A DNA stretch of 64,000 bases from Cyanophora paradoxa CCMP329. Its lineage: Eukaryota; Plantae; Glaucophyta. Position 1 is the stretch's first letter. Each line of letters opens with the position of its first letter. The notes beneath the pieces were generated by a model. It saw only the letters and a program-made list of their open reading frames with translations. It did no database searches and was not told the origin of the DNA. The translations under genes were made by a program, and so were the position numbers. Shown here in pieces: positions 22,267-63,351 of the stretch. The stretch is taken from assembly GCA_004431415.1 (NCBI GenBank), contig QPMI01000712.1, forward strand, positions 1-64,000, in the 5' to 3' direction.

Positions 22267-22811
22267 TGACCGTCACGGCGTCGGACGTCGACGAACCTAA
22301 GGCGAAGAGGAACTTGGAACTTCGGAATTCGAACGACTCGGCGATGCGAATGCTACATAGTAGATTAACCCATGTTCCCCTTGGAAGAAAATTCCGTTTA
22401 GTACTACGGCAGACTCAAACTGCCAGCATTGAGAGCGGTGCGAACAGTCAAAGTCACTGACTGGACTGTGCTCCATGGGTGGTCCAGCCTGGGCTGCCAA
22501 CAGTCGTGCCAGCATGTTTGGTAAGTGGGGAACTTGTGAATCGCAGGCCAGTGGTTGAGTTGTCGCTCTCATTGGTATACTCAATTCGATATGCACTTGA
22601 AGGCTGCCAGTGCTGCCTTGACTCACTGTGGTCACTGAGACAGGCTCCACATGAGAAGGAAAAGTCACTGAGTGATGTATGACTCTGTGACTTCTTAAAA
22701 AAAAGTAGCGGCAGCCGCTGCCCTTGCCAGTGAGCTTGGAAGTATGAAGTGGGAAGATCTGCCACAGAGTGGAGTTTTGTGGCTGAAATTGGGTATCCGG
22801 CAGTTCTGTCA
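22267..22811 (-). repeat. Putative 3' LTR of the Gypsy-like element
   Basis: On the minus strand it starts TGAC just after a polypurine tract (GGAAGAAAAAAGGAAAAAAAGGGA, ~22820-22843) and ends GTCA at 22267 where host-style sequence resumes. The second LTR is not in the window, so this is unverified. Confidence 0.45.
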
Positions 22812-23612
22812 ATGGAAAGTCCCTTTTTTTCCTTTTTTCTTCCTGAAGTGCTGTGGTGCACTTGATTGCTCAGTGCCGATTCAGAACCGGTTCGATTCTT
22901 GGCAAACAATAAATAATACATTAAACATCTTGGCATGTACAACAAAAAGAAAAGCATATGTTCCACAATGTACAAACAACAAAACAAGACAAAAAACAAA
23001 AAAACACAACACTAACACAACGTTCACACATTCACAACAAACAAAACAGAAACTTGCCAAATTGAAATTGAAGAGATTGTACTTGCATTGTTTGTTTAAC
23101 ATCTAGTGTTTTAGGAGGTTTTATACGTCCCAGTAGACCTTAGCAACCTTCCCGTAGCGTACCAGCAGCAGGCGAGCAGGCTGTCACGTTGCAAGAGAAA
23201 GCTGCTAATCACAGACTACTGTGTACCCTAGGACACGGCTACCGGAAAGTATCAAGCTAGAGTCAGAAAAAGTAGCTAGGGTCGCATCTTCGTACAGGGG
23301 TACAGTGACTCAGGAAATCGCGAGAAACCGCGGGTCAAGTCACGGTACTACTGCGAACGAAGTGCGAACGAAGCACTAACGGCTAGGAAACCCTATCGGC
23401 AACAGCTCTCCAGGTCCTCACAGACGCTTCCACGCGGCTGGATCAGAAGAGATGTAGAGCTGCGCATTTGGTTGAGGGCAAACCAGGCAGCGGTGATCAG
23501 CCGCTGACCCAGCGCCAAGAGAGAATTCCCGAAACTCGCAAGCCACATCCCAGTGAAGGGCACGTCATCGACAACGGAAGTGAATCCGGTAAACCGCAGT
23601 ACGGGCCGTGAT

Positions 23613-24900
23613 TCAAGACTCGTCATCCGTCGTGTCATCATCGGAAAGTGAATCGGGATCAACGGCAGGTGGCGGAGGCACGGGGACCTCATGATCGGGC
23701 GGCACAGGCACGGGGGCCTTGCGAGGGCGACCGGCTTTGCGGGGAGCGAGAACATTGGCAGGACGCTCGTGAAAAGCGATCATGAGATCAACGTGCATGA
23801 GAACCTCGCGCGAGCGATACACCAGTGAAGTGTCATCGCCTCGGACAGTGTACAAAAGACCGTGAGAGTGAACCTCAGTGACAGTGTAAGGGCCAGTCCA
23901 ACCATTGCGAGGCCCAGTGCGCTTGACGTTACTGGTCTTCGCGCTGATAATCCAGCACAACACTTTGTCACCAGGCTTGAAAACACGATGCGGCTCACGG
24001 CCAGTCACTGCTGAGTGCCATAGCGAAGCAACTTCTTGTTGTAAAGTTTGCGGTGTTCTCGGACGGCAGAGATTTGGTCGCGGGCGGCTCGAGCGACCGA
24101 CAAAGCGTAATCGTAGAGAGAAACGGGATCTTCGTGAGGTTCGCGCAGGGTGAGGTCGAGACGAAGATCGCCAGGCAACATCAATTCTCGTCCAAAGTGC
24201 AGAGCGGCGGGTGAAAAACCAGTGGCAGCGTGAATCGTGGTCCGGAGAGCGAAGAGCACGCGATAATGATAGAAAGGCCAATGGGAATTGTCCTCCCCGT
24301 TCTCATCGCAAAGAGCATACACCAAGCGCTTGTAAATGCCACCAAGCCGCTCAGCACCGCCGTTCGTGGACTGGTGGGACGTGGGAGCGTAAATCAACCG
24401 AGTACCCTGGCGAGTCCAGAATTTGCCCCAGAGACTAGTAGGCGTGAAGACCTTGGCGTTATCCGTGAGATACCGCTTGCAAGGGCCGTGATTCGCGTAC
24501 ACAGTTTGTGCAGCCCACTCACAGGCACGACCATCAGCCTCCGTCAGCATCAAAATCTCAGGGTACTTGGTAAAAGCGTCGACGTCAATGTGCACAAGTG
24601 TGAAACGGTGAAGTCGACCGTTCTCAGAGGGCGCCATAGGGAAGTGATCGGCTTGACGCAAGTCGCCAGGATGCTCAGACTCGATCACAGTGAATTGTGA
24701 CTTCGGCTTCTTGTGAGCCTTGGCAAACTGACAGTGTCGGCACGTCTTCACGTAGCGATGGACAGCAGTCGTCATGCCCGGCCACCAAAACCGTGAGGCG
24801 ATGCGCCGAGCAACAATGGGGGCACCACGGTGAGCCCAGTCATCGTGGTAAGCGTGAACAATCTTCTCCCGCCACTCTGGGGTACAACGATCTGAGGCCG
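23613..24900 (-). CDS. Gypsy integrase (H2C2 zinc finger, DDE core, GPY/F module, AT-hook tail); frameshifted
   Basis: HDDWAH...CRHCQ; QADHFP, YLTDNA, TNGGAER; TTIHAATGFSPA; FKPGDKV...WTGPYTV; KAGRPRK. Confidence 0.92.
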
Positions 24901-26589
24901 CATAGTGGGGAGCAAGGGCAACCGCAGTACGGTATCTTGCTCATCGATCGTGTACTGAGTAGCTTCACGAGCGAAGCGATCGCGTGCAGACTTGCAGAGA
25001 ATGCAGCTCCCAAGCACCTCCGGGTCACGTTCACCAGCAGTGTAGTGGGAGTGACAGCGCGCCAGGTTCTCCTTCTCGCGAAGAAGTGCGAACACCATCT
25101 GGCAAAGAGGGTCACGAGCCTGAGCCATGATGACCGCGGTCCCATCGGAAACAAGTTCACGGATCGTCGGTGGCGGAGGAACGTCAACGAGGGGCGGGGG
25201 CCCTCGCTCCAGGTGTCCATGACAACGGTGCCACGCGGCAAGCGAACGTGTGTCGGCTCATTCTGGGCGCCTTCACCTTCGTCCAGCGGGGCGATAGCGC
25301 TGCTAGAAGTGGGATCAGGTCGCGGACGACCGAGGTCACGTTCTTGCTGCAGGAAGTGCATGTACTCTTCCTCGTCAGCAACGTCGAGATGCGACGGGGG
25401 CGCAATGGCATATCGAGACTGCCGTGAATTCTTGCCCTTGGGAGGCTTCACCCGCGGTACGGGGCATGCCTTGGCGTTCAGCGCCTTGCGGGATTGTCGC
25501 CGTCTGCGCCGCTCCTCCGGGGTTCGGTTCCGAACAGAGGGCAGGGTACGAGCGCGTCGATCTCAGACGGGGTACGGCCCATCTCTGCCAGTTGGCGTCG
25601 CCGTTCGAGCGTCGTCGCCGTCCTTTCCCGCGAGGCTTCGTGCAGATCTCGGGCCGCACGCGAACGTCTGTCGCGATCACTGGCGAGGCGGTCAGCGTAG
25701 TCCTTTTCAAGCCGTCGCTGGTATTGGCGCGGGACACTCCAAGCCGTGCTCCGTCTTGAGTTCGACGTTCCGTCGGACGCCGAGGACTGCGAAGATTGGC
25801 CGTCATCCGTGAGGGCCCGGCGTCGTGCCCGTTCCACAGAGTCGCGTAGCGTGCGGTCAGCTGCTTGACGATCGAAGCCTCGCAAAGATGGACGGGGTAG
25901 CGACGGCTCGCTCTCCTCGTCTGTACCCCTCCCCTCCTTCCGGTGACTGAGACCGAGGCCTCCGGGCCGAGCTCTCCCGTCCTCGAGCTTGAAGCCCGTC
26001 AGCGGAGCTCTCCTGTCCTCGAACTTGAAGTCGGCGGCGGCGACCCTCGGCCGGTAGCCAGGCCGCGCCGTCGAGTGTATGCTCGAGGTTCGTCACCCGC
26101 GGCGTCGCCGTGCAGGAGGGGCCGTCGCGCCCGCCTCGTCTGCCGCTGCGGCCGGTGCAGGCGTGTCAACTTCCATGGGTACGACGTCGGGGCAGAGAGG
26201 GCGCCGTTCTCGTGGAGCCGTTCCAGCGTGATCTGGGACTCCACGTCTTCCAGGCCGCCGTTCTCGACGATGTCACGCACTCGCTGAGTGTCGGGCGTCA
26301 ACGACCTTGGACGTCGCCGTGAAGTCTGAGGGTCGTCGCGGTCTCGGCGCGGTGGCGCCGGGCAAGGTGCTCGGGTCGCGTGGTGGCGCGGCGTCTATCC
26401 CCAGTAGGGATCCACGCCGGCCCGTCCAGAGTATGTTGCAGGGCCGAGGAGGTGCGGTGGATGGCGACGCGGTAGAGTTCGCGTGGATCGTCGTAGTCTC
26501 CCGCATCGGGCACACCGAACCCGTGAGCGCCGTCTGGTATCGAAGTCGTGATGTCAGTGCCGTCAGCGCCGCCAGGCTTGTACACTGCG

Positions 26590-27000
26590 TGCGTCTCCGC
26601 AAGGCGAGAGCAGCAGTCCGCAACGACGTTCGACCGCCCGTTGCGGTACTCGATAGTGTAGTTGTAGTGGTTGAGGGCAATGGCCGCGCGCCCAAGCGTC
26701 TTGTTGTTCGCCAGCTCCTGTGTCTTCAACCATTGCAACGCCGAATGATCCGTGCGGATCGTGAACGGGTGGCCGCAGACGAAGTAGTGGTGCCAGACCT
26801 TAACCGCCCAGAGTACCGCAATGCATTCGCCCTCCGTTGGTGATTGGTACTTGCGCTCCATGTTTGTCAGAGTACGACTGATGAATGCGATCGGGCGCTC
26901 GCGGCCGTCCTTGTCCTCCTGCATGAGCACCGCTCCCATGGCCCGTTTGCTCCAGTCCGTGTAAATGATGAACGGCTTCGTGAAGTCGGCAGCATCAGCA
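26590..27000 (-). CDS. Gypsy RNase H
   Basis: DFTKPFIIYTDWSKRAMGAVLMQ...PIAFISRTL...ECIAVLWAV...FTIRTDHSALQWL...GRSNVVAD. Confidence 0.93.
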
Positions 27001-27960
27001 CAATGTCCTCGCACATCGCCTTCTTGAGGTCGTCCAACGCAGCGAGAGCCTCGTCATTCCACACCAAGTTGAGCCGGTCGGCTCGTAGTGCGTCCGTGAG
27101 GAGGTCTCGCAGGGAAAGTTCCCGTCGCGCGTAACTCTGTACGAAGCGCCGGTAGAAGCCCGTGAGGCCGAGGAAACTGCGGAGTTGCTCGACAGTCTGG
27201 AGTTCGTTCGCCGTGATCTTGGAGATGATCTCAACCTTCTTGGGTCCATGCGAATGCCGTCGCTGCTGACACGGAATCCGAGCAGCTCGACTTCCCGCAC
27301 CATGAAACGACATTTGCTGGGCTTGAGTTTGAGGTTACCGCGGTCGATCGCAGCGAAGAAGGCCTCCAGGTCGAGAAGGTGTTGTTTGACGTTCGGCGAG
27401 TGGACCGTGAGGTCATCGACGTACGCCACGACGCAGGTGGACAAAAGGTTGCCCAAAATTGACGTCACGGCTCGACAGAACGCCGCTGGGCCGTTCGTGA
27501 TACCAAAAGGGTCACTTTCCACCTGTACATTCCCCAGGGACGATGAATGTCGTCAGGTCACGTGACTCCTCGTCGAGTTCCAACTGCCAGAAACCCGACG
27601 TTGCGTCGCCAGTCGAGAACGTGGACGCACCCTGTAGGCGCTCCAATTGGTCCTCAATGCGTGGCAACGGGAAGACATCACGTTCCGTGAGGGAATTGAG
27701 CTTCCTGTAGTCGACGCAGAATCGCATCGTGCCATCCTTCTTCGGTGCCAGCACCACGGGGCTGCCGAAACCAGCTTGCGAAGGCTCGATGAGACCGTCG
27801 CGTAGCAGCTTCTCGATTTCCGCCTTCGCAGCCTTCTCCGCAGGCGGAGAGAGCCGGCGAGGGACGGTGTACAGCGGGAGGTGCTTGGCGGGGACGCCGG
27901 GCAGAAGTCGGATGCTGTGCTTGTACTTCAGGAGCTCGCGTGGATTGATGTTCTGGGCGA
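27001..27960 (-). CDS. Gypsy reverse transcriptase; frameshifted
   Basis: SPVVLAPKKDGTMRFCVDYRKLN, FPLPRIED, GDATSGFWQ, PFGITNGPAAF, YVDD, KPSKC, LLGF. Confidence 0.95.
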
Positions 27961-28949
27961 AGCAGTGCTGGCGTTGCGTGAGAAGGTTCTGGAGTTGAGT
28001 GCGATCCTCGGGAAGGGCGTCGGGGTTCGACTCCGATGGTTTCAACAGGGCGTCCACCATCGCCTTGATGGTCTCGGGCGATGGCTTTGTAGGAGGCGCA
28101 GTGTCACTCGACGGGGGCTCCATTCGAGCGTCGGCATTGACGGACGCGATGGGCACCGTGGGGCCGACTGCGGGGCAACCAGCATCGGCTCGGAGTCGAA
28201 GCGGGCGAAGTGAGGCTCGAAGAAGCTGGCCAGCTCCATGAGCTCCTTGTCGTTGAAGTGATCGCCGGTTCGAGCAGTGTAAGGGGTGACGACACGTGCG
28301 ACGTACGACATGAGACGCTCGCTGGCCTCGTGGGATAGCGGGATGTCGGCAGCAGCATCGACGGAGCCAACATGCGCCGCCTCGCCCTCCTTGCAGTTGG
28401 GTTCGGGCGGTCGTCGGTGGTAGACCTCCGGGTAGAGGCGTCGGGCTCGGGAGATGTAGCGCCGTGGTTGCGAGCGTCGGGGTACGACAACAGGCTTGAA
28501 GTTCTCATAGATTTGCGCGGCTACGGAAGAGATCGGGAATGTCAGTTGTTGTTGAGGTGTCCAGGAGCTGTAACACCCCTTGGGTAGGTCTCGACATTCT
28601 CGTGTGGACGGAATTCGGACTCCGGCCAAGTCCCGAATTCAGTCTCCGCAATCACAGTTCCGGCTCGCAGGCGGACAGGCCGCCTGTGAGGGTTGCAGAT
28701 CTGCACGAAAAACGTGCCGTGTGCTGGGTTGCGGTGAATTTGGTATGGCACCAAGAATTCGACTTCGTCGGCTCCGTCGAAGCCGTCGTCGTCGAGGAGG
28801 AGTGGTGGCGGAGTGAGGAGGACTTCCGGTGCGCCGAGAGTCGTGTTCGAAGTCGTTTGTGGCATGTAACATCGAACGAGCGATTCACCCGGCCGTACAG
28901 TGATGTCCTTCGCCAATCGGACCAGAACGCCGCCGTCGTGCTGGCCCGC

Positions 28950-29416
28950 AGCCGAAAAGGGACGTGGAATCGTTCGCCATCCGAGGAGTCAGGCGACGTG
29001 ATCGTCATTCCCCAATTTGCTGGGTCGAGCACGATGTGAGCGTTGAGCGCCACCAGCGTTGTGAGGCCGAGTAGCATTGGAGTGTTGCCCATGAGACCAG
29101 GCGCGACGACGAGGACCTTCCGCGGAATTGTGACCGGACCAACCTTAATTGCAATGAATGCGATGCGCGCATAGGCAGTCATGTCCGTTCCAAAGCCGGT
29201 GAGGTGCACGCGCGGAGCGTTGCTGTAGCGAAGGCCTGGCAGTTTGTCGGCGATACTGCCGTCGAGTACGTCCGCAGCGGCTCCTGTATCCACCAATGCC
29301 TTGGTGAGGAGGTATTGAAGGACTTGTCGTCGGTGATCGATAGCGGCGATGTGCAAGTTGACGCAGATTCGGCCGTCGTTGATGCGCTCTCTGAGCGTGC
29401 GGTTCGTGTCCGTCAT
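28950..29416 (-). CDS. Retropepsin-like aspartic protease
   Basis: KALVDTGAAADV followed by PMLLGLTTL, upstream of RT. Confidence 0.85.
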
Positions 29417-30829
29417 TCGCGCAATGGGGTGTGGTACTGACGGGCCGCCGTCGCCGAAGAGGGGAACGTCAAGGGGTCCTCGACGTCGTCAAATCCCAAC
29501 ATGCGTGCCGCGCAGACGCGAAGCGAGGCGAGGTAGCTCTGCTCATACGGTGTGCACGGTGTCGAACCGGAGATGACGCTGGCTGGCGGGAGCGGTGCCG
29601 TCCGCTTGAGGCGAGGTCGCTTCCGCGTGGTTGTCCGCCTGTGCACGTTCATGAGGACGTCCGTCGCGGCGAATGGGCGTGCCCTGCAGGGAGCTGCCGA
29701 CAGACGCAGCGGGGGCCGGTGATTGCGCATTGTGGCTGAAAAGTATCCGACGCCAAGGATGGGCTTGCAGTCGGCGTTTGCGAGCTTGTTGAGGTGGCGG
29801 TTGCTGGGCCAGCCATAGTGAATCTCGTTGATCGCGTCAACTTCGGTCCCCGCTGCGCCATCCCGTCGTTCAGCCGGCCGGTAGCCAGGCCCTCCGGGGA
29901 TCGGAACGGGATGGCTTCGCGGTGGCGCGAGAGAGACGCCCGGAGATATTTGACGAGTTGGGGCCAAGCGTGGCGGAGGCGCGTGTCGCGTTGGAGTACG
30001 TGCCGCTCGTAGAAACGTGTCCGTTGAGCGTCATGACTACGGAAGTCATTGTGGAGGACCACGTCCCACGCCGCGAGGCCGATTGAATTGAGGATGAAGG
30101 CCGCCCGAGTGAACAAGGCGCGAGTGAAAGCGAGGTCGGCTGACAGGCCCTGAGAGGTTGTGAAATCCCACCGAAAGTTCTCGATCTCGTGGAGCGTCTC
30201 CAGGATTGCGTGGGCGTTGAGTTGGTGAGACCGCTGAAGCGGCGACCAGTCGTACAAGTGATAACTGGCAGCGAATTCAGGGTCCTCGAAGGCACGGTGT
30301 CGCGCGGACGTGATCCGCTCGTAGTCCGGTCCCCGTCCAGAGTAGAGGAGCCAGCAGCCCATCGTGAGATCCGTCGACGTCCTGGGATTAGTGAGGTCGT
30401 TGTATGCGATCGTGTACGTGTGCTGCCGTGTGAGCGGTCCAAGGAGGCCGTGGGGGCGAACGCGGACGACTGCACGCGCGAGGCTAGGCTCGGCGTCCCG
30501 GCCGACGGGGTCTCCGATGGAGCTACGGACTCGGCGGTGGAGCCACCACTGTCCGAGCTGGAGTCGTCGCCGTCAGAGGTTCCCGTCGTCTCGGTCCCCG
30601 TAGGACTACGACGCGGAGGCCTGTTACTGCCAGATGGCTTGAAGACAACACCCTGGATGTGACCGAAGCGTGCCAGTCCCGTCGGCTCGTTGGTGCGCAG
30701 ATCCTTGAAGTCGGTCGACCAGACGACGAAGGGTCGGACAAAGGGCTTGCGCGCAATCCCAGGGTTCCGACGAATGTACTCGTCCGTGCCCACGAGCTTG
30801 ATCTTGCCGTCGAGGCGCGGGTCCCAAAT
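29417..30829 (-). CDS. Distal part of the giant unknown ORF preceding Gypsy pol
   Basis: Chained ORFs 29870-30844, 29649-30362 and 29413-29967 with protein-like content, cut at the A1 repeat. Confidence 0.6.
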
Positions 30830-31144
30830 TCGGGGTTTGCGCAATTAAGCGTAAACCGAGTTTTGCGCCGACGGAATGAATAGAAGAGAAGCCAGAGCGC
30901 CAACTGCCTACCTTAGCTAGAAGGACCGAGCGACCGGACCGGCCTAAGCGACGGGTCCGGGCCTCGAGCACGGTATAGCAGAATTCGAGTTCTGCACCGA
31001 CTCCGGGGAGAACTCAGAATTTGATTCGGTCGCGCCCTGAGGCGAACGAAGGCCGGGGTACGGCCATTCCTTCGGCTGCCCTTCGGCATAACTTCGTCCT
31101 TGGTTGCCAGCTTGACCAGGCACCCAGCGGCGAAGCGAAATCGC
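30830..31144 (+). repeat. Split direct repeat A1 (315 bp), copy 1
   Basis: Matches 36176-36490 and 57026-57340; 3' part also at 63352-63483. Confidence 0.95.
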
Positions 31145-31827
31145 CACAGCCAGTTCATACCACCTGCGTTCAGCATGACGCAGCCGAACGCACCCGAATC
31201 GGCGATTCCGCCGACCGGCCACGCCAGCCTGCAGTGGAGCAAGCTAGCTCAGCGCTTCTTCTCCAAATCCCCTGCGGCGGGCGCGATCCAGCGAACCTTG
31301 CTCGATCCGTGGCCTGACGGCGTTCAGTCTTCCTGGATGATGCCCTGGCAGTCCGACGGATCCTCTCAGTCGCTCTTGGACTCTTACAACTGGGGCTTCC
31401 TAAAGCCCGGTACGCTCGTTCTCGGCCCGGCCGCCCGTCGGTTAGAAGATCTTCGACCGGCTATCTCGGGGCCGTGCCGCCAACCGCGGCCGTGCACTTA
31501 GAACCCTAGCCCGAGCACTATCTCAGAAGAGTCTCGCTCGTTTAAGTGTCTGAGCCCGACAGCCCTTCCTTTTCTTTGTTTTCCCCTTCTCGATTCCGTC
31601 GCGACGCACACTTACGCATCTCGCGCATGGCCTCGCGACGGCTGGGTCGACGCGGCGATGACGGGCGCGACGAACTCCGCCTCGAAGCCGCCCCGACCAC
31701 ACCCGCGCCGCCATGCCCTGCCTGACATGCCGGCGGCGCGGCGCAGATGACGGCGGCCACCGAGCGAGAGAGCCAAAAACGGTGGCGCTCCAGGACCTCG
31801 GCGGCCGCCATCATCATACCTTGCGCG

Positions 31828-32475
31828 GTGTCCCGGCAGAGCCCGGCGCGCACACCGGCAGGAAGGCGGAGCGGCTCGCGGCCGGCGCGCCGGCGAGCCC
31901 CGCAGAGCGTCGAGGCACGACTGCGTGCTCCGCTTTCTTCCCCTGTGCGATGTCCCGGCGGAGCCCGGCGCGTACATCGACAGGAAGGCGGCGAGACCCA
32001 CCGGCGCGCCGGGGTCTCCCGCGGGACGTCGAGGCACGGGTCGCGTGCTCCGTCCCACCTCGCGCAGTGCCCCGGCGGAGACCGGCGCGTGCACTGGCGA
32101 GAAGGCGGAGAGGCTCGCGGCCGGCGCGCCGGCGAACCCCGCAGAGCGTCCAGGCACGCCCGCGTGCTCCGCTCCCCTCCTTTTTTCCCTGTGTGATGTC
32201 CCGGCGGAGCCCGGCGCGTACATCGACAGGAAGGCGGCGCGACCCACCGGCGCGCCGGCGGGCCCCGCGGGACGTAGATGCACGGGCCGCGTGCTCCGTC
32301 CCACCTCGCGCAGTGCCCCGGCAGAGCCCGGCGCGCGCACTGGCGAGAAGGCGGAGAAGCTCGCGCCCGGCACGCCGGCGAGCCCCGCGGGACGTTGAGT
32401 CACAGTTACGTGCTCCGTCCTCTCCCGCGCGGTGCCCCGGCGGAGCCCGGCGCGCGCACCGGCGAGGCAGCGGCG
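31828..32475 (+). repeat. About 5.4 tandem units of ~120 bp in the 5' region of the YR element (second copy at ~37174-37820)
   Basis: Unit begins GTGYCCCGGCRGAGCCCGGCGCG and ends CGTGCTCCG; two variants alternate; translates as VPAEPGAxTGxKAExLAAGAPAxPAxR. Confidence 0.85.
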
Positions 32476-35400
32476 TTCCCCGTCGGCTCCGACGGCAGAC
32501 CCCGCGAGAGTCGACGCGCGCCGCACCGCGCTCCTCTATCTAGCCTCCCGCCCTCCCCCGCCACGCCGCAGCCGCAACACACCGGCTGACACGGCCCCGC
32601 GCAGATAAGGACGCCGGCAGCGGCAGCAAGGCGATGAGCGTGTCCGCCTCCATGATCATCGACTACTGGCGCCACGCGCCCGAACCGCATCGCCTCCTCT
32701 TCTGCGGCGACTGCGCGACGACGGCGGGGATCTTCCCCCCGTTCCTCTCCAGCGGCACGCTCGACGGCGGTCTCATGGTGGGCCGCCCCCGTCACGCCTG
32801 CATGACCCCCCGCTCGCTTATTAACCGACGGCCTGACAGTCTCGCCCGGCGGACGCGTCAACCATGCTGGTCACTTCTCTCGTCCCGATCATCGCTTTCG
32901 CGGTCGACGAGGCTAGTTTCTACGCCGTCGCCCCGTGTTCTTCCGACCCCACCAGCCCTGGCTACATGTCCGCATGCCCCGCCTCTCGACGTCACGCGTT
33001 AACCGCGATCGCCAGCGACTACTCGGCGGTGCGCGACTCGGTTCCGCGGGAGCTGTTCAACGAGGCGGTACTCCGCTTCGGCGAGTCGGCCGCCGTACTC
33101 CTGGCTACCTTCGGCGCCACCTGCCTCGAGGTCACGGAGTTCTACGGCTACAAGTACGGCACCATCCCTGTCGGCCTCCCGCGAGGGTTCCCGATTTACT
33201 ACGACGACATTCCGTGCCGGTACGCCACTCCTCGCTCACCGTGCCGCGCCCCTCACCCTCCACAGTGACTGGGCGGCCCTCGAACCCTGGGAAAAAGTGA
33301 CGGCGCTCGGTGCGCTCACTCAGCTCTACGCCTGGTCCCCCGAGTCAGTCCCCAAGTACTCCAAGACGGCGGTAGCCGACGCCCACGGCTGGCTCCGGCC
33401 CTTGCTTGTCACCTTCATCGAGAAAAGCAAGGCGCTCTCCCGCGATCACCGCAAGATCCTGCGCAACGACATCGTCGCCGCCTTCGGCCTGGCCCCGGTC
33501 CGGCCCGCGTCTCTCCAAAACGCGAGTGGCCGGCATCTCTTCCGGGCGGCCTGACAGTCGGCACCGTCCCCTTCGGAAAAGTCCGCCCGCCGCGCGCTCG
33601 CTGCACGCCAGCGCACTCAGCGGTCGCCCGCTTCGCAGTTCTCGTTCGCCGACTTCTCTCGCGCTTGCGGCTTCCACCCGGCCCACTGGGACGCCTCCGC
33701 GGTGCTGCGCGACTGGGACCAGCCGGCCCACAAGGCCGTCAGCCTGTACTTCCCCCACATCTTGAAGGCGGCGGAGGCCGCGCGAAAACGCCGCGGCGCC
33801 GCGGCCTCGGGCGACGCCGACGCTGCCACCGCCGCCACCGCCAGCGCACCCCCAGCGGACCCCAAGTCGGTCCGCGCACACATTACCCCCTCTCGCCTCG
33901 CCCACGCTCGCTGCCGATGCTTCTTTTTTCGCGGGCAGCGAGCACGGGCTCCGAAGGTGGCACATGGAGCGGCCGCGGCCCCCTCGGCACCCCCTCCGGC
34001 CCAGAAGCGCGCCGGTGCGCTACCCACCCCCGCTCATTTTTTACCGCCGCCCACCCCGCCGCGCAGGGGCAGCCCCGCCCACCGGCCTCGCTCCTCCGCG
34101 CCGCCCCGCGCCTGCCAAGCCGGCGGCTGCGGCCGGGAACACCGACACCGCCGACGCGGACGCGGACGACGACGTCGACCGCCCGCGCGCCTCGCGGTCG
34201 ACCCGCCCGCCTAAGCGGACCAAGGCGACCGAGGCCTCGGCCCCGAAGGCCCCCCCGGCGCCCGCAGACTCAGCCGACGAAGGCGGCGAGTCAGACGCCC
34301 CGCCTTCACCCGCCGAGGAGGCGGAAGCACAGGCCCCGCCACCCAAACCCGCCAAGAGCCGCAAGGCCAAGACCGGTCCGTCCACGCGCCCGCTGGCCTC
34401 CCCGGCGGCTCACCCCCGCCTAGGCGACCCCCTTGAGATTCGCCTGGCCCGACTTTCTGACCCGGCCCACTTCACCGCAGCCGACCGCGACAAGGCCCTG
34501 CAGTTCGCCGAGACCCGCGACCTTCCCACGCCGAACCCGGCCCCGCGGTCTCCGACCTGCCGCCCGTTCCGCCGGCCAACCCGCAGGCGCTCGCGGCGTC
34601 CATGCTGCAAGCCGGCCTCGCCAGCATGGCCGGCGGCGGCCCGCCTCCCCCGTTCTGGCCCGCGGGAGTTCCGTCCCCGTTCCTGCAGCACCAGCAGCAG
34701 CCCCGCTACTCGGCCGCTTCCACGGTCACGCCAGCGGGCTGGGTCGTCCAGGCGCCCCCGCATTTCGCGGCTCCCTGGCCCTCCTCCGGCACCGCCAACC
34801 ACGGCGCCGGCATGTTCCCGGGCTTCGGGGGCCCGCAGACCGACTGGTTCGGCCCCGCCGACCCCGGCTTCCGGATGCCGCCCGCCGGCCCGCAGCTCCC
34901 GCCCCGGCAGGCCGCTTCCCACACCGCCGCGCCACTCGCCGCCGGCCCCCGTGGGGTCCCCGCCGCCCGCTCCGGCAGCCGCGGGGCCACCCAGGCCGCG
35001 CAGAAGCTCGCCCCGCCCGCCGCCGCAGCGCCGACAGAGCAGCCCCCGACCTCATCCTCCACCCGCGCCCGACCGTTCGTCCCCAGCGACGCGGAGATGG
35101 AGGACGAGGCGGAATCCGACGCCCCCGGCGACGAACCCGCCGGCGAGGACGACTGGGCCGGCGACTGGGACTCGGACGACACCTCGACGCCGCAGGACGC
35201 CAGTCCCCACGTCGACGCTCCCTCCGAGTCCGGTACGGACTCGTGGCCGCCGCAGCCCAAACCCTCCCTCCGTCACACTGACCCGGGATCGTGCAGAATC
35301 CGCTGCCCCAGTGTACTTGTTGGACCGTTCAGATCGTGCAGAATCCGCTACCCGGGCGGCTGAAGGTCCGTTGGACTTGTGGGGCGCGGCGCGCAGGCCG

Positions 35401-51789: not shown

Positions 51790-52273
51790 ACTCTTTAACG
51801 TTTGAGAGAATTGATGAGAAACAGACGTACTCGCAATTCCTTCGAACTGTAGGGCTGATTCCACAAAGACGTTGAGTGGTTACAAAAAGGCTCATGTTAT
51901 AATGACGCCCACTAGTAAAAAGCTTTTGCATTAATCGGTCGCTGTGGACGTTCACAAGGTCATTATCGAGCAAATCATCTAGAACGATTGCAATCTTGCG
52001 CTCATCTTTCTTGCGTCGCCTTTCTTTTTGTTGCTCTAGAAGACTCTCAACCAAAACTGGATCCCATTCTTCGTGAATATTGTTTGAGCGAGTCGTGTCG
52101 TCCCACTGTTCTGTAAATGCTGTGGTACTAAATACGAAGATATCGTCTAGCTGCGGAGCTACTGCATTTAATACGTGTTTAACGTAGGTGCTTTTTCCCG
52201 AGTTGGTGGGGCCGACAAACAAGAACCGTTTAGGCAGTTTTATTTCTGTAGGATCAAACAGTTTGATATCCAT
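51557..52273 (-). CDS. A32/FtsK-like genome packaging ATPase
   Basis: Walker A GPTNSGKS, Walker B IVLDD, FTSGRHYNMSLFVTTQ, ISPTVRRN. Confidence 0.93.
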   Translation of the reverse strand: MDIKLFDPTEIKLPKRFLFVGPTNSGKSTYVKHVLNAVAPQLDDIFVFSTTAFTEQWDDTTRSNNIHEEWDPVLVESLLEQQKERRRKKDERKIAIVLDDLLDNDLVNVHSDRLMQKLFTSGRHYNMSLFVTTQRLCGISPTVRRNCEYVCFSSILSNVKEFNCVFDEYNAGATRANLMRLFVELNHSYQVLIYEAATADRVYSVDKSSGTTSALLRFVRVKKQRDQKSVAKAVATTS

Positions 52274-53501
52274 CTAGAAGTTACTTACCTTTAGAGTTGA
52301 CATTTGATACGAGTTAATTACGAGAACATTGTGGCGCAGGACGTGGAAGTCAACAACTGCTGGCGCTGCGTTTGTGCAGCCGGTCACAGTTAGCGAGCAG
52401 TAGCTGCTGCTGGAATTAAAGAAGTCTGTGTAGCCGAGGACAGCGTTATGCAGTGAGTCTTTGCCAGATTTCGAAAGCACAATCCATAGACATTTCCGTC
52501 CTCGAAGCCAAGGGCTGAATTGCCAGTGGTTGCACCGCGGTATTGAGTTGGAATGTGATAGCACGATGATACAAACCCAGAGATTGGCTTATTGCTGATG
52601 TCGAGAGTTCGGTTGTTGTGCATGATCTCAAACGAATCGATTTTCAGCGCATTTCCGTTGCCAGCAAATGAATTGTGATTGCGAGTGCCCAGGTGATTCG
52701 CATTACGCACTGTCATCAGGATCGCGTGCACAAGGCCGCTGACGTTGGCAAGGGAGATTTCGACTGCATTCCCCGCGTCGTCAGTCTTTAACTGCCTCGA
52801 GCGCTTTGAAATAATCTCGGTGAAAGGAATTCGAATACCACCGCTCTCGTTTGCAGATTTAAGCATAGACTCAGCCTCTTCGCTAGGGATATTCACGAAC
52901 TGGCAAACCAGGGCACAATCCGTTAGAGTTGCAACAGCACTAGCGACAGTTCCAACCACGCCAGCCGAACGGAAGTCAATTTCGACGGTTGGCATGTCAG
53001 CCAGTGCGAGCAGCGGGAAGTACGAATTGTCCAGAGCTGGGAGGGGATCTTTAGTACGTACTCGCGACTCGCATCGAGAATCTCAAGAGCCGCGTCCTTT
53101 CCAAAGCCGTAGCTGCTAGCAAAAGCCTGGGCGGACGCAACGCTATTATCAATGAGCGCGTTCACAGTGAGCCAGTCTCCAGGGATCACCATCTTGAAGG
53201 ATCCATGAACAAAGCGCACGTTTTCAATAAATGCACCAGCGCCATTAGGCAGCACCGAGGCGGCAGCTCCGCCAGCGACGCTGACCTTAAAGTATAGCGA
53301 GACACCGTTTAGAAGCTGCTTGCGCGGAAGGTCGAAAGCGGCAGTCTGCGCGAAGCCGTACGAGTTGCCTCGCGGACGGATCGTTTCAAGGAAAGGCTTG
53401 AACTTGGGGCTGACACCGACAGTGAGACCTGGGGATAAATAAAGTTCGCTTGAACCTTTGGTAGTGAGGAGCTCCTTTAGAGTTGTTCCTGCTTGCGCCA
53501 T
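52274..53501 (-). CDS. Major capsid protein (probable double jelly-roll), ~410 aa across two frameshifts
   Basis: Beta-rich; FAQTAAFDLPRKQLLNGVSLYF, AFIENVRF, YFPLLAL..PTVEIDF, ...VLRHNVLVI; abuts the ATPase gene. Confidence 0.75.
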
Positions 53502-53545
53502 TTGCTATTATAGACCAGAAAATTTTCATGCATATTGTTGTAAAG

Positions 53546-54441
53546 ATGAAGCTCCGCGTAAATGTCGATTCTAGGGACCGGTTCGAAGGCACGTCCTCGA
53601 ATTTCAAGATCAATCTCCCAAGGCCCCTCGTTAATGTAAAGTCGGTGCGAGTTGATTCGCTAGAACTGTTTCATAACATGTTCAACCTGTCCACACAAGC
53701 CGCAATTATCACCGGCACCCTTGATCCCTCTGGCGTTGAGAAAACACGTGCCAACACTTTCAAGCCCGGAGTCTATACGCCAACCTCCTTGCAAACTATC
53801 TAAGCACGCTTCTTAAAACCCAGCAGTATAGTTACGGCGGAACTACTTATCAGCGCAAGTTCGTCGTTCAGTTCGAAGAGATCTCAATGCGGCTTAGGTT
53901 CCTGTGTGAAGCGGACTTTATTTTGAGCTTCACATCGGCCGAACTATCGAACCTGCTCGGGTTTGCGAAGACTCTCAGTGACCTTTCCAGTGAGCTTGAC
54001 ACACCTGAGACAATCGATGGCGTACAATATTCGTACGAGCTGTTCAGCGATATGCCAGTTGATCTACTTTATCACACGTATTTGTTCCTGTACATTCAGC
54101 AGATCAAAGGCCCGATCTTGACACTTAACCCCTATACAACGGGCTCGATCGCAAAGATTCACATCGACTCAAAATTCGGGGAGCTCATCAAGTTCACATC
54201 TGAGGATCGTGTTCCCGTCACAGGCTTCGATCGAAACGCTGAGCTGTCTGAACTTGACATATCGCTGCGCTATCATAATGGAACAGACGCTGTCACAAAC
54301 ACAGAGTTCTCGTTCGTGCTAGAGTTCGATATCGAGGATGTCTCTTACACGTCTGCTGCTGCTAAATCCGCAATTAAGAATGCAGCCAGCGAGTACGTCC
54401 CTTCGACAGATCGTTCGCATAAGTTTTTTCCCACTGCTTAG
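53546..54441 (+). CDS. Minor capsid (penton-like) protein; one frameshift
   Basis: VNVDSRDR...SNFKINLPRPLVNVKSVRV, PGVYT, NLLGF, YLFLYI, LSELDISLRYHNG, EFSFVLEF. Confidence 0.8.
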
Positions 54442-55980: not shown

Positions 55981-56251
55981 TGATTCACAGACCGGCGCGT
56001 TTGGGGGCCCGCCTCAATTCACTGCTATATCGTTTTGCATTATCGATCGACCTAGACACCAGATACTACCTAGCGGTTGCTGGATGGAAGGGGAGGTAGA
56101 CCAGAGGGAGAGAAGGGCGGTAGACGTAGCGAGAGAGTGGGAAAGAATGAGGGCTGGGAAGGCGCTGGAGTGGGTGAGTGAGGGGTGGGTTTGGGGGTTG
56201 AGGGTGGCAAAGAGGGCGGGCCCACCCTGATGGGGGTACTCTCATTTTTTT
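55981..56251 (-). repeat. Right terminal inverted repeat of the virus
   Basis: Reverse complement of 44986-45286. Confidence 0.95.
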
Positions 56252-56340
56252 GCTGGGCACTGTACTCTTCCGTGCCCCAAGGATATATTGAGGACTACCT
56301 CTTTCATCTGTCCTCCGACCTGGCCGACCTCGGCTTTTGA
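56252..56340 (+). pseudogene. Tyrosine recombinase, 3' remainder with the putative catalytic Tyr
   Basis: Collapsing the TSD gives HGRWALYSSVPQGYIEDYLFHLSSDLADLGF* in frame. Confidence 0.88.
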
Positions 56341-56524: not shown

Positions 56525-57941
56525 TTGGTAGGGGTACAGCACTCGTGCGATGTTTTCACGCACAATCGCCACCCCGCGCCTCGGCGGCGGTACCCGGGAC
56601 CGCTTACCGGCCCGGGTAGAATCGCGTACCCCGCGCCGGGTACAGCATTCGCCCCGCCAGGCCCCGTCAGGCGTGGCTCGAGCTGAACGCGTACCCTGCT
56701 CAGGGGTACGCCAAAACCTCCGCCTCGGCCACGAGAATCCGGTACCCGCCGCACGGGTACGGGATTACTCAGCCTTACCGCCGCTCCGGTCCGGAGCAGG
56801 GGTAGCTTTCACCCGCCTCCGGAAGGAAGCGGCCGAAAGAGCATAAGGCGACCGCCCTGGTCGGTCGCCGACGTGTTATCCCCACGTTAGGTCTCGGGAA
56901 AGCAGCATCCAGCTGCCGTACCTTCAGGGCCACTCCGATGCGCTATACCGTGCATCCCTTTAGAATAGTCGTAGGCAAGTTAGGCTAGCTAGGCTTCTCT
57001 GATTCCGAATGAAGCGAGGCGTAAATCGGGGTTTGCGCAATTAAGCGTAAACCGAGTTTTGCGCCGACGGAATGAATAGAAGAGAAGCCAGAGCGCCAAC
57101 TGCCTACCTTAGCTAGAAGGACCGAGCGACCGGACCGGCCTAAGCGACGGGTCCGGGCCTCGAGCACGGTATAGCAGAATTCGAGTTCTGCACCGACTCC
57201 GGGGAGAACTCAGAATTTGATTCGGTCGCGCCCTGAGGCGAACGAAGGCCGGGGTACGGCCATTCCTTCGGCTGCCCTTCGGCATAACTTCGTCCTTGGT
57301 TGCCAGCTTGACCAGGCACCCAGCGGCGAAGCGAAATCGCTCCCGCCCTCCTCCCCGCGTTTTCACAATCGGCTGTTTGTGGATGCGACGGCTCTATCCT
57401 TTTCCAACGCGCTACGAGTATCCGTAGAATACTCTGGCAATCTTGGTAGGGGTACAGCACTCGTGCGATGTTTTCACGCACAATCGCCACCCGCGCCTCG
57501 GCGGCGGTACCGGACCGCTTACCGGCCCGGGTAGAATCGCGTACCCGCGCCGGGGTACAGCATTCGCCCCGCCAGGCCCCGTCAGGCGTGGCTCGAGCTG
57601 AACGCGTACCCTGCTCAGGGTACGCCAAAACCTCCGCCTCGGCCACGAGAATCCGGTACCCGCCGCACGGGTACGGGATACTCAGCCTTACCGCCGCTCC
57701 GGTCCGGAGCAGGGGTAAGCTTTCACCCGCCTCCGGAAGGAAGCGGCCGAAAGAGCATAAGGCGACCCGCCCTGGTCGGTCGCCGACGTGTTATCCCCAC
57801 GTTAGGTCTCGGGAAAGCAGCATCCAGCTGCCGTACCTTCAGGGCCACTCCCGATGCGCTATACCGTGCATCCCTTTAGAATAGTCGTAGGCAAGTTAGG
57901 CTAGCTAGGCTTCTCTGATTCCGAATGAAGCGAGGCGTAAA
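56525..57941 (+). repeat. 3' terminal B1-A2-spacer-B2 block of the YR element
   Basis: B1 56525-57025 matches B2 57443-57941; A2 57026-57340 matches A1. Confidence 0.93.
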
Positions 57942-60900
57942 GTACGCGCGCGACTCCTCTGCCTTCGTCGTAGTGATGTAGTTCATGATGTTAGTGAAGC
58001 GCGTGCGGCCTTCGTACGGGTCGACAGGCGCGCCGTGGGGGCCGTGACCAATGTAAATGTGGGGGATCTGACGAAGGAGGCTGTCGTTGTCCGGATCGCC
58101 CAGGGAGTGACGCAGGGGGAGGACGTCGACGATCTGTACCGCCCGGTAGGCTTCGCGGCTAGTGAACGTGATGGGCCGCCTCGTCGCCGCGTCGACGGTG
58201 GCGTGATTGTAAACGAATTGTTCCAACCAACCGTGGAGTAGCGCCCGCGCCTGCGGTTCGCGACTGAAGATGGCGGCGCCGAATTCATTGTAGAATGGAT
58301 CGAATGTGAAGTTGCCATATTCGGCGTGACGGAATTGCTCGTGTATGTCGGCGTATCGCTGTTCGAAATCCATAATAGCGTTGCGCACTGCGCTCGCGTT
58401 GACGTCATAGACACTGGACGATGCGGGTGTGACGGATCGTTCGTGGGATCGAAGTCAGCGCCCCGGACTTGGGCGTTGAGTGCGTTGATGACTCCATCCG
58501 GGAGTCGGAATGCTACGGGCCAGCAGTGTTTCGATCCATGTCGACATCTTCGCGAGCCGCCGGGGGTGTCTCGTGCTTGATCTGGACCGCCAACCAGTCG
58601 TTGGTTGCCTTGTGCAGTAGGGATTCGAAGGCTGTGATTAAATGTGCCGGGTCGACGCGTTCGCAGTCAGGGTACTCGACCTCGTACCATTTGTCGAGTT
58701 TGGCACTGCGCGCCACTTCGCCTGAAGCCGTGAAGCGGAAGTGCAGCTCATCCTCGTGGCTACGAACGTAGTCGATGATGATGTTCCCGAGTTCCCCCGG
58801 TAGGGGCTCGAGGAAGAACGACAAGGCACCGTGCAGCTTGACTGCCGCCGCCAGGTACGCTGCGATTCCGTACACCAAGTGTGTACCGAAAGCGGGAACC
58901 CCAGGACCTGGTGGACGACGGGGGGCGTTGCAGGCGCGGTGCCCGTGGGCCCGCGACGACGCAGAGACACGACGACGCCCCCAGGGCCAGTGTAGTCATT
59001 GACGGACACCGGGAAGTACTTGGGGTCGGGGCCGCACGGGTGCGGCCCGCCGCCTCGTTTGGGGGTTTCCTCGTGCCGCGATGATCTGCTGCCAGGTGTT
59101 CCGGTTGTTCGCGTCGAAGATAGTGATGTGCGAGCGGTTCTGGATCGCGTTGGGGGCACCGCGGCTGGGTCCGGCCGGTGCAACGTGCGTGAATCGGACG
59201 ATTCGAGGGCCGCACAGGTCAGCATTGGCCGGCGTAAGAGTCATGGGCGGCGCGTTGAGGTCGTCGGGCATGGCAATCTCGTAGAAGCATCGTTCGACAT
59301 CTTGACGTGAAGCGGAGTCACGAGGTGCGCGTGGTTGTCCTCGTCGTAGATGCAGTCGAAGTAGTCGCATACTTGTTGGCCGGGTGGAACTCGTCGGCGG
59401 CCGTGATCAGGAACGATCGGAAGGGCAGGCCCGCGCGGTTGTGCTGGCTGAGTTCGCCATGGCCGGGAGCACCGGCGCGGTACGGGTAGGTGCCGGGCCG
59501 ACGCCGTAGCGTAGGACACGACTGAGTGCTCGCGAGAAGTTCGACAGCGTACGTGCATCTTCATGAGGAATGGGCGCATGTACGGGACGCGCCGGAGAAA
59601 TGCCTCGAGACCAGAGTCGCCGAGTAGCACGTATGGCATGTGGACCTCACCTAGGACGTGCATGTACTTCTTTGTCGTGGTGGCGGGATGAACTGGGGGT
59701 GGGTCCCGAGTCGGGATTCCCTCCAGCTCTTCGACCGGCGGCGGCTCCGGGAGCTCCTCCGGTCTGTGCCCGTCCTCCACAGTGAGCTCCTCGGTCAGAT
59801 CAGCCGTCTGTCCGAACGGGGCTGGGCCTCCGAGGATGTGAGCCGCGACGGCGAAGATGTGGGGCGCGTGTCGCCCATGTTCCTGGATCGTTTTGCAGTA
59901 CGCTGTGGCCAGGAAGTCCGTGTTCGTGAAGAGAAGCGGTGTCATGAAGATGTGATAGGAGGTATCCCGTCCCGGATCAGTATCCAGAGGTAGGAAGTCA
60001 CCTCCAGCTCGCGTCTCCTCGGGGCTGTATGTGCGCATGCCGTACGGAGTGGGGGCGAGGATTGTGGAGACGGATTGGGTACCAGTCGTTGATCGTTTGG
60101 GCGAATAATTCCCCGTTGATATGATTGTTGCGCCGTCCAAAACCCGCATAGAACGTGTCGCGCTCGTTCTCCGTCGAATCAGGTCGCGGTTCCCGTCGGA
60201 CCATCACGCCGCTCAGATCCGGCACACTCCGTGCTGGTAGCCAGCGCCGTCGACGACCGTGAAGCCCTTCGCCCATTCCTCGTTGAGGAAGGCCCAGAAA
60301 TAGACGTCAGAATGTCAGCGTTCTCCGAGAGTAGCACCTCCTTGAAAGAACAGTGTGGAGTTCGCTCAAAATTCTGGAGATGATGGAGTCGACCTCCTCG
60401 GGAGTGAGCCGGGCGGCCTTGCGCTCCTTCTTCTGCAACTTCTCGTCATTCGGTCGCTTCTCGCGGGGGCGCTTGCGCTCTGTTCCGTAGACCATAGCGC
60501 GGCGCGAAGCCCCAAGTACGTGTTGGAGTTCCAGAAGTGTCCTTGCTCATGTCGTCGACAAGTCCAACGAGGGAATCCCAGTCAGGAACGCGAGGCAAGA
60601 TGTCGATGCCGTCCGACGTCCACTGTGTCAGGTATCCGTACTCGTCAACGTCGCGCTCAGGGGGCCGTGGGACCGGGACGGCGAGAGGTCGGTGACGGTA
60701 CCATCGGACTGGGGAGGACAGGGAGTAGGTGATCGCGGTAGCGCGGGTAAAGCATGCAGTAGAACAGATTCAATCGATGCTCGGCGTCCAGGAGGAAGGC
60801 CCGTGTTACCGCCAAGCGCTGGGTGGTCGTAGCCTTGCTAAGTGCAGTGTCGAGTCGAGCGACGAGGCCGAAAGCAAGCTTGCTCACAGTACGAGTGCTT

Positions 60901-63351
60901 GACTCCGTCTCGAGCTTGTACGCGCGACGCATGGCCTCGAGAGTCAGCTGGAGGATATGGGAGCGCCACGCAGTTTTGCACGCCAGGAGCGCCGCCTCTT
61001 CAGGGTGCACCATTATGTAACGGTCAGAGTTGTAATAGAGCTCGACAGCTGCTCGGGCTGCTTCGGGTGAAGACGGGGCGTGCAGTCGCGATTCGAGACG
61101 GATCGGTTTGCCCTTCTTGGCGAGTTGACGCTTGTGCATGAACGTAGTGATTGACATCGCGACAACGGTGGTGTCATGTAGCTCGGCGAGCCTTGCCAGC
61201 GCAGTCGTCTCCGTGACAGACGTGGCGACGACGTTCGTGAAATTTGAGGGAGGACGCCGGAGCGGTGACGGGACAGTCCGTGCCGAAGACGTGGTGTAGG
61301 TCGGACTCGCTGACGGGGCGTGCGCAGACGATGGACATCGCGTGCCGCGACCACTGCTAACTGGCTGTTCAGCCGGATCTCCTCCGCGAGCTCGGCGGTC
61401 GCCCGCTGGTTCGTAGCCGGGTTCGCGTCGGATTTCGGGTTGAAACGGGACGTGTAGTAACGGCGCAGGAAGTTGCCGGGGCCCTCGACGTCGGCTGTGA
61501 TGTTGACGAGGCGGAGTACGTTCTCGACTTGCTCGGTGAGCATTGACAGCAACGGCGCGTGACTCGTCGGCCATGGACGGTCGGAGCTCGGTGCTGGGTC
61601 ACGAACGTCGTAGAGGTGAGCAAATCGGCTATCCCCGTAGCGGTCGCGCGTCTCGTCCCACTTGTAATGGTCGAAGTATGCAGCGATGTCCCACGCCCGC
61701 GCCAGGGCCGTCGAACGCATCGACAAGGCGATGTCGGGCGGCGGTGAACCGTGTCGAAGCGTAGACAGATAGATGTCGTCAGGTCCTGTGAGCGGGGCCG
61801 TGAACTTGACAGTTTGGACCAGTTGCCTGATTGTTGCAAGGCGCGTCGCCGTGTTCGTGATCTTGTCGAAGTTCAAGACCGTTCATCGCTCTCCGTCATC
61901 TCCACGTCGTAGTGCAGCGTCCGGAGATTGCGGGCAAGGTTGACAGCCCTGAAGGATGCACGGTACGACTGGAGTCTTGGACTGGTGTACAAGAGTGAAC
62001 TCTGTCGGTGTCAAACCAAACAGCTCCAGCATCTCTGGCCGTCCGAGGACATCGGCGAGCGGGTCGTTCGGGTGAGGCCACGTGGTCGCCGTCTCCCCAG
62101 GCGCGAAGGGCTGAGCCCGCGCGAGGCGCATGATGACGTGGATGACGGAGCGGAATTCGGTCAGATGTTGAAGGAGGTAGTGAGCCTGGTCACTCGGGCG
62201 AGTACCAGCAACGGTTGCCCAGTAGGCGTGTTGCTGCGGGCAGCTGCGAGGTGCATGCAGCTCGTGAGCTCGCTGGCGGCGAAGAGGGTCGGCGTCTCAG
62301 GGGTCTTGCGCCAATCCGTCGTCGTCGTTGTGACCATGAAGCGTCGCGGCGTGTCCAGGTACGCACGCAGCTGGTTGTGCACCACGGGCTTGAGGCGAAG
62401 GATCGTCCAGGCGTGGCGGTGTCCAAGGTCGGCGGCCACGTCCTTGATCTCGGGCTCCGAGTCGCTGGACGTGTCTTCGTCGGTGTCAGGAGGACTGTCA
62501 CGGTCGTCGTGAGGGCTCGGCAAGGTCGGCGTGTCGACGATGATCCCCCTCGAAACGCGCGGGTCGCCCATGGGCACGTCCTCGGTCCTCTCAGTGCCCG
62601 ACGAGTCGGCAGTCGTCGAGTCAGGCATCGACGCGTCGGTCGTGCAGTGTAGTCGGGTGAAGTGACGGGATCGGCAGCATCGGGGGTTGGGCCGGGCTCT
62701 GCGGCGGGGCCGCCGTCACAGTCGTGGCCGGGGCTGGCGGGGCGTCGGACGGGGCCAGTAGCTCAGGCGCAGGCGACGGGGCCGTCGAGACCGCAGCCAC
62801 GGCCGTGGGGGACGGGACGCTGTGCGGGGTCGTCAGCGAGGTCGCCATCGCCGGTGCGATGGGCGAAGCATCTCGAGCGGCCGTCGACGAGACCGGCGTC
62901 TCGAGAGCGGGCGTCGGGGCCACCGGAGTCGTCGTCACGGGTGCAACGGGCTGGGCGTCCGGAGTCGTCGTCGCGGGTGCAACGGGCTGGGCGTCCGGAG
63001 TGTCCGTCGACGAGGCCGTCACCTCGGGCGCAGGGGGTAGGTCGTTCCGCGGGGCCGGGGGCTCCGGGACGTCGGTCGGCGGTGTCACCGGTGCCGTTGG
63101 GCACGTCATGTCGTCATCGTGGTAGTGAGGGTTGCCCGGGGTCTGGGGCCGGCTGGTATGAATCGGGAGCGCGCGGCCGCGGCCCCTGACCGTTCCCCCG
63201 TGCCTCGCCGATTGGCGCGGTGGAGCCTGTGCTGCCGCAGTACGGCGACGGGCGTCCATGGTGCGGCCACGAGCAATACCACCGATTGCAGCCTGCAAGT
63301 AGGGGGCTTGCGCCGCGGCCTGCACCGGGTCCTCTCCCTTGGCAGCTTCGG
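57942..63351 (-). CDS. Proximal part of the giant unknown ORF of the Gypsy-like element; frameshifted
   Basis: Continuous chain of intronless minus-strand ORFs (~1,800 codons), open right up to both YR-element junctions; no recognisable domain. Confidence 0.65.

Follow-up and report, generated by a model that had tools for sequence, protein, structure and literature searches.

Structure of the locus

We analysed a window of 64,000 nucleotides from the glaucophyte Cyanophora paradoxa CCMP329 (contig QPMI01000712.1, positions 1 to 64,000), in which a Polinton-like virus lies inside the gene for the recombinase of a tyrosine-recombinase (YR) retrotransposon, and the YR element lies in turn inside the first open reading frame (ORF1) of a Ty3/Gypsy long terminal repeat (LTR) retrotransposon (Table 1). 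This topology is confirmed. A first-pass annotation of the same DNA had proposed a three-tier nest of virus, YR element and Gypsy element, and the nest is real, as attested by repeats, an exact target duplication and two empty alleles.

The viral block (44986-56251) measures 11,266 bp and has a GC content of 48%. Its terminal inverted repeats of 243 bp (44986-45228 and 56008-56250) differ by three substitutions (98.8% identity), and the hexamer GCTGGG flanks the virus on both sides as an exact 6-bp target duplication. As a background for this match, chance identity of 6-mers in YR DNA was seen in 155 of 200,000 random draws. A target duplication of about 6 bp is what rve-type integration produces (PMC12220804). 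When the virus is excised together with one copy of GCTGGG, the recombinase frame is restored, with HGRW joined to ALYSS.

The YR element extends from 30830 to 57941 (27,112 bp), with its repeats in the order A1 ... B1 A2 B2. No substitution separates A1 (30830-31144) from A2 (57026-57340), or B1 (56525-57025) from B2 (57443-57941), which follows A2 after a spacer. Excision of the YR element restores the Gypsy frame, and third-position GC is 0.74 and 0.75 on the two sides of the join. An open frame alone is weak evidence in this Gypsy DNA, where 331 of 976 arbitrary 100-codon frames were open, and it is therefore the empty alleles that decide the nesting.

Uninterrupted copies of the YR and Gypsy elements were sought and were found among the C. 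paradoxa gene models in EukProt, four of which (P0001-P0004) are nearly identical to retrotransposon open reading frames (ORFs) of the window. P0003, a YR recombinase, matches the window on both sides of the virus with an offset of +11,272, that is, 11,266 + 6, and its residues 148-421 agree exactly with the window except for three one-base offsets. P0001 crosses the YR site without the element, as GVARVHLDPRLDGKIK, where a G run is shorter by one base, and 1,271 of its 1,285 residues lie in exact segments. The two models read through both predicted joins, after HGRW in the recombinase and between KAEESRAY and IWDPRLDGKIK in the Gypsy ORF, and these joins are thus borne out by frames and empty alleles alike. 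The possibility that P0003 and P0001 are intron-spliced products of this same locus was rejected, since the insert does not end in splice sites and both models depart from the window by indels. Residues 1-147 of P0003 have no counterpart in the YR element of the window, and it is possible that the P0003 copy is truncated, or interrupted at a point farther upstream.

Split-direct-repeat YR elements insert without target duplication. The YR junction is duplication-free: the empty allele P0001 fits a flush join, except for the one base in the G run. Insertion without target duplication is also stated for YR integrases in PMC12220804.

Table 1. Features of the nested elements, with positions in the window.
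Feature	Position	Strand	Basis
Candidate Gypsy 3' LTR, 545 bp, TGAC...GTCA ends, single copy in window	22267..22811	-	
Candidate polypurine tract, 25 nt, 8 nt from candidate LTR	22820..22844	-	
Gypsy pol pieces: protease, reverse transcriptase (RT), RNase H, integrase (H2C2 zinc finger)	23613..29488	-	Pfam
Gypsy ORF1, 3' part, continues from 57942 after YR removal	29413..30829	-	P0001
YR left terminus within Gypsy ORF1 (repeat A1, same sequence as A2)	30830..31144	+	Repeat comparison
First copy of YR 5' 4,487 bp, broken off at 35316	30830..35316	+	Repeat comparison
Captured 859 bp, flank of another YR insertion, filler at start	35317..36175		Sequence comparison
YR: second A copy, tandem repeats, ORF1 region, RT, RNase H, recombinase to HGRW	36176..44985	+	
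Target-site duplication GCTGGG, left copy	44980..44985	+	Sequence comparison
Viral terminal inverted repeat, left	44986..45228	+	Repeat search
Protein-primed DNA polymerase B (pPolB), frameshifted pieces	46134..49494	+	DNA_pol_B_2 E 9.6e-4, under curated cut-off; motifs by eye
Probable rve-type integrase, two frames	49433..50544	+	Weak profile, rve E 0.073
HNH-AP2 endonuclease	50814..51344	+	Profile matches
A32-type packaging ATPase	51557..52273	-	Pfam Pox_A32 E 1.3e-11
Major capsid protein, three frames	52274..53501	-	Atlas 0.97 to capsid N-terminus clusters
Possible minor capsid protein	53528..54441	+	Position and look; no profile match
Viral terminal inverted repeat, right, extra T at 56251	56008..56251	-	Repeat search
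Target-site duplication GCTGGG, right copy	56252..56257	+	Sequence comparison
YR recombinase gene end, with presumed catalytic tyrosine	56258..56340	+	P0003 residues 395-421
YR 3' repeats B1, A2, spacer, B2	56525..57941	+	Repeat comparison
Gypsy ORF1, 5' part, first ATG at 63259	57942..63351	-	P0001, P0002
Second YR end, with a portion of A, the spacer and the greater part of B	63352..64000	+	Repeat comparison

Order of events and internal duplication

The first-pass annotation had held that the insertion order could be read directly from the locus. This stands for the outer step, since the precedence of the Gypsy element over the YR element is secure. The claim that the virus came after the YR element is valid for the YR lineage but may not apply to this locus, where the order is not simply readable because of two observations: the gene model P0004 and DNA captured from another YR site. 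P0004, from a different named contig (tig00021746), ends in 31 residues derived from the left viral inverted repeat, including a stop codon that the right copy lacks, and relative to the window its indels diverge in both directions. It probably represents a further assembled stretch containing this YR-virus junction, be it an assembly duplicate or a genuine second copy. As this junction is shared, counts of recurrence must collapse identical junctions.

The captured DNA lies within the YR element, which had been described as a clean 10.5-kb unit plus virus. This description fails: the 27,112 bp contain a 4.5-kb duplication and 859 bp of other DNA. The stretch 30830-35316 recurs at 36176-40655, with three substitutions in 4.48 kb and 13 homopolymer indels, and the 859 bp lie between the copies. 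The second copy begins exactly at the YR terminus (36176) with a flank unlike that of the first, and therefore derives from another insertion. The junction at 35317 carries filler that repeats 18 nt from 35287, 30-45 bp upstream. No match to the 859-bp piece was found in the Gypsy DNA of the window or in P0001-P0005. Its right part holds a coding-looking open frame on the minus strand, for which Pfam and PHROG gave no match. Two other identities for the piece were rejected: a true continuation of the Gypsy element, as P0001 continues at 30829 and there is no sequence match, and a transposon end, as its start repeats the 18 nt from just upstream.

One-sided invasion repair is a mechanism that yields a 4.5-kb duplication together with a captured flank. 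A break would have occurred 4,487 bp into a YR copy, repair would have copied from another YR insertion plus its flank, and the free end of the repaired copy would then have been end-joined through filler. One-sided copying repair of this kind is the simplest reading of the duplication and the captured 859 bp.

A different history would have the virus enter a YR element elsewhere, the composite then being copied to this place; ectopic repair or segmental duplication could have done so or, as the least likely route, a retrotransposition of 21.8 kb. The nest would be just as real, with an order of events at the locus that differs from the one read. The same join of YR element and left viral end in P0004, on another named contig and with a different indel pattern, is consistent with this, as are the DNA captured from another YR site and the 3 substitutions among the 243 sites of the viral inverted repeats, against none in the YR repeats. 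However, single-base losses are many in the RNase H part of P0004, as they would be if one locus had been assembled twice with poor coverage; one-sided copying accounts for the duplication with the virus-bearing right half staying put; and viral ends need not match at integration. We therefore consider the copying of a composite to this locus improbable.

Part of the arrangement might also be an artefact of assembly, in which near-identical repeats from different loci were joined. Homopolymer indels are many, the window contains two local duplications, and the repeat-rich stretch of 21.8 kb exceeds the ~15-kb inserts of the long-read data for this species (PMC6704402). Nevertheless, the empty alleles agree in exact register with the two outer flanks, the 6-bp duplication has no mismatch, the junction with filler is templated, and a second assembled sequence has the left virus junction. 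An artefact thus appears extremely unlikely.

At the right edge of the window lies the start of a second YR end. It begins 183 bp into the A repeat and lies upstream of Gypsy ORF1, 93 bp from the first ATG of that frame. It may be a second insertion, a solo repeat or a tandem duplication of 57209-63351 (6.1 kb), and the window stops ~85 bp short of the point that would separate a second insertion from the tandem duplication.

The retrotransposons

The outer element is a Ty3/Gypsy retrotransposon. It shares the protease-RT-RNase H-integrase order with Ty3/Gypsy LTR retrotransposons, and the nearest solved structure to its RT is Ty3 (E 9e-25); its pol region carries many single-base frameshifts. 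It departs from Ty3/Gypsy elements in its length of at least 14 kb and in its ORF1 region (63351-57942 + 29413-30829, read from 30829 to 29413), which is unusually long at ~6.8 kb and without a recognisable domain. Pfam and PHROG gave no match for ORF1, and the atlas no usable one (P0001 residues 240-760). A HMMER search with a 171-residue piece of ORF1 against 1.84 billion representatives retrieved two C. paradoxa models and nothing else. The element had been called giant, and at least 13,973 bp of it are indeed present; the figure is a lower bound, since the 5' end, the second LTR and the target duplication lie beyond the window.

The middle element is a split-direct-repeat tyrosine-recombinase retrotransposon (DIRS order). 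Its RT lies at 42357-42959 (RVT_1 E 5.6e-16) and is accompanied by an RNase H (E 0.0011) and a tyrosine recombinase (Phage_integrase E 3.2e-5, scored on P0003). About 5.4 copies of a 119-bp unit occur in the YR 5' region, at 31818-32466 and 37164-37811, and contribute to the 10.5-kb unit size. Downstream of the RNase H, 43700-44089 encodes ~130 residues with no Pfam match at E 10; this might be a degenerate methyltransferase-like domain, which would bear on the choice between Ngaro-like and PAT-like. The A1 ... B1 A2 B2 layout is common to Ngaro-, PAT- and VIPER-like elements, which are separated by phylogeny (PMC6681497), and the element may belong to any of these three. With them the element also shares RT/RNase H, a tyrosine recombinase and the near-identical repeats of young copies (PMC6681497). 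Two distant metagenome relatives of the YR element (L001, 31%; L002, 29%) were dropped, being without split repeats. In an exact look-up in the gene-model protein collection, one of ten ORFs from the retrotransposon region was present, as were none of eight viral ORFs; the single entry, P0006, is the RT ORF terminating at the window's own frameshift.

The virus and its surroundings

Of the classical Polinton/Maverick genes, the pair of pPolB and rve integrase is present, both weakly matched and frameshifted. An adenovirus-type maturation protease is a feature of classical Polinton/Maverick elements; no protease match was found in a scan of the viral ORFs of at least 100 aa, in which frameshifts could conceal one. 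The atlas match of the capsid (0.97) came with a recognition score under the tool's strong threshold, and folding the capsid piece from its single sequence gave no usable model (pLDDT 34.7). Pfam and PHROG gave no match for the minor capsid candidate. No relatives of the capsid piece were found among proteins of 339-2000 aa, none of the ATPase among proteins of 130-417 aa, and none of the virus in viral contigs and metagenome contigs; PDB sequences gave weak matches only. The viral ends open with an A run followed by TGAGAG. Just inside the right end, at 55144-55939, lie three AT-rich tandem arrays with units of 39, 41 and 155 bp, which are possibly a replication or packaging region.

The virus is Polinton-like and belongs to a family already catalogued in C. 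paradoxa, as its capsid is by eye identical over the shared length to a C. paradoxa major capsid protein confirmed by HHpred (96.9%) in Table S2 of Bellas 2023. With Polinton-like viruses it shares terminal inverted repeats, a double jelly-roll major capsid protein, an A32-type packaging ATPase and a probable rve-type integrase with the matching 6-bp target duplication. The Table S2 capsid comes from a different named contig and is free of the window's two frameshifts, and the viral frameshifts in the window are therefore probably consensus errors. The same supplement lists 366 capsid hits in C. paradoxa (PMC10120064), and a column count in one printed row of its Table S4 suggests that the C. 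paradoxa hits lie outside the virophage columns. Adintovirus-like PolB and integrase sequences have also been noted in this species (PMC8502044). At 11.3 kb, the present virus is shorter than the commonly quoted range of 14-40 kb (PMC10120064, PMC8502044). The portions of Bellas 2023 and Starrett 2021 that were covered contain no description of the flanks of this insertion.

The first 21.5 kb of the window hold GC-rich genes with short introns. Among them are an intron-rich heliorhodopsin gene (about 1700-2990, plus strand; Pfam E 2.1e-25) and a many-exon gene (about 14680-21550, plus strand) that by eye resembles a gene for a secreted subtilisin-type protease. The latter ends ~700 bp before the candidate Gypsy LTR, so the repeat island starts right beside a gene. 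A tRNA gene search of the window found none.

Targeting or accumulation

The first-pass annotation had raised the prospect of hierarchical targeting among the three elements. We consider it probable that the nest instead reflects successive, recent insertions that accumulated in a repeat island, and not recognition of each element by the next. The families are young, with no substitutions between the YR repeats and three between the YR copies. The YR element would have entered the Gypsy element by recombination of a circular intermediate, and the virus would have entered the YR element by means of its own rve-type integrase, each inner insertion inactivating the element that it hit. Such insertions would persist by sparing genes in a haploid, gene-dense genome; alternatively, repeat chromatin would attract insertions non-specifically. 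C. paradoxa repeats are methylated (PMC12344493), and mavirus-like elements show no sequence-specific integration, with 18 of 29 sites near repeats (PMC8547959). Such piling up of mobile DNA in places where it is harmless has already been described in other protists.

LTR-class DNA makes up 1.77% of the C. paradoxa genome (PMC6704402). In favour of accumulation, even uniform placement of 366 viral insertions leads one to expect ~6.5 of them in LTR-class DNA, with a 3.8% chance per YR copy. Several observations weigh against accumulation. Under uniform placement a full three-tier nest is predicted only 0.007-0.07 times per genome if 10-100 YR copies are assumed. Of the three YR junction sites that the window contains, two border on a single Gypsy copy, and the contig that carries P0001 (Gypsy) also carries P0003 (YR), at a distance of 27 gene numbers. 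Ngaro elements also offer a precedent for targeting at the family level, with 91% of type 1 inside EMALEs (PMC8547959). Since uniform insertion fits the three-tier nest poorly, clustering in repeat islands is needed, and an assumed fivefold enrichment per step raises the expectation to 0.15-1.6 three-tier nests. The clustering may stem from survival bias, from a non-specific preference for methylated repeats or from targeting of Gypsy by the YR element.

The last of these would involve a single targeted step: YR elements of this family would have a preference for the Gypsy family seen here, for instance via their ORF1 protein, and the virus would have landed without family specificity. The second YR end abuts the same Gypsy element at 63352, the uniform model is weakest at the step from YR into Gypsy, YR and Gypsy gene models share a contig, and in Cafeteria Ngaro ORF1 correlates with target choice (PMC8547959). 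Against this, the piece at 63352 starts 183 bp into A, just as a duplication of 57209-63351 would, neither P0001-P0005 nor the window's Gypsy DNA contains a match to the other YR flank (35317-36175), and a comparison of the two YR left flanks, two sites only, found no common motif. We judge such a preference unlikely, if worth keeping in mind. The tetramer AAAT occurs at the Gypsy target (30826-30833) and at the YR B-A join (57023-57029), one base off the crossover, and is absent at the other YR left flank.

A broader proposal combines homing of the YR element to Gypsy with copying of the 21.8-kb YR-virus composite between loci, the virus travelling as cargo into a third element. The P0004 junction and the YR end at 63352 would then be traces of a mobile YR-virus composite. 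We hold this combination to be rather unlikely.

Full hierarchical targeting, in which the YR element homes to Gypsy and the virus homes to the YR element, would account for a nest that exists and that uniform placement explains poorly. Yet we found no positive support for it: there is a single virus event, the YR left flanks differ, with no target motif or targeting domain found, and Pfam detected no chromodomain on the viral integrase or on the Gypsy integrase. The flank comparison covered two sites, and targeting could also act by way of chromatin or ORF1. Furthermore, another copy of this capsid gene is listed on a different contig (Bellas 2023 supplement), and related viruses have no reported site specificity (PMC8547959). 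This possibility is therefore very unlikely, and we retain accumulation in a repeat island as the probable explanation.

Known nests and significance

The relationship of virus and YR element had been presented as the inverse of that in Cafeteria, which is wrong. Hackl 2021 (PMC8547959) describes EMALE03 inside Ngaro4, itself carrying two Ngaro1 insertions, that is, three tiers, so the virus-inside-YR relationship is not new. In the EMALE-Ngaro system of Cafeteria burkhardae, too, an rve-integrating, capsid-encoding virus is nested with a YR retrotransposon of A1-ORFs-B1A2B2 layout (PMC8547959). In contrast to that system, the outer layer here is Gypsy, and the virus is no mavirus-type virophage but Polinton-like; the locus belongs to a glaucophyte, and its YR unit measures 10.5 kb versus ~6 kb. 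In Halocafeteria seosinensis, Polinton-like viruses (PLVs) and virophages are frequently nested in transposons (bioRxiv 10.64898/2026.07.28.741278); the host elements there are MULE and LINE, with Ngaro absent, whereas here they are YR and Gypsy. Gypsy elements often lie near viral insertions (Bellas 2023, PMC10120064), and retrotransposons inside PLVs have been reported (PMC12220804). The literature covered, mostly without subscription papers, gave no account of this locus or of the virus-in-YR-in-Gypsy order.

The locus is thus a cleanly resolved glaucophyte case of a nesting already described in bicosoecids. Its three very young families, together with both empty alleles, make it a good place to map the crossover of the YR element and the target duplication of the virus. 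If family-level targeting or a mobile YR-virus composite proved true, retrotransposons would have a way of directing or disseminating endogenous viruses. C. paradoxa, for which 366 capsid hits are listed and methylome data exist, is an organism in which the targeting question is directly testable.

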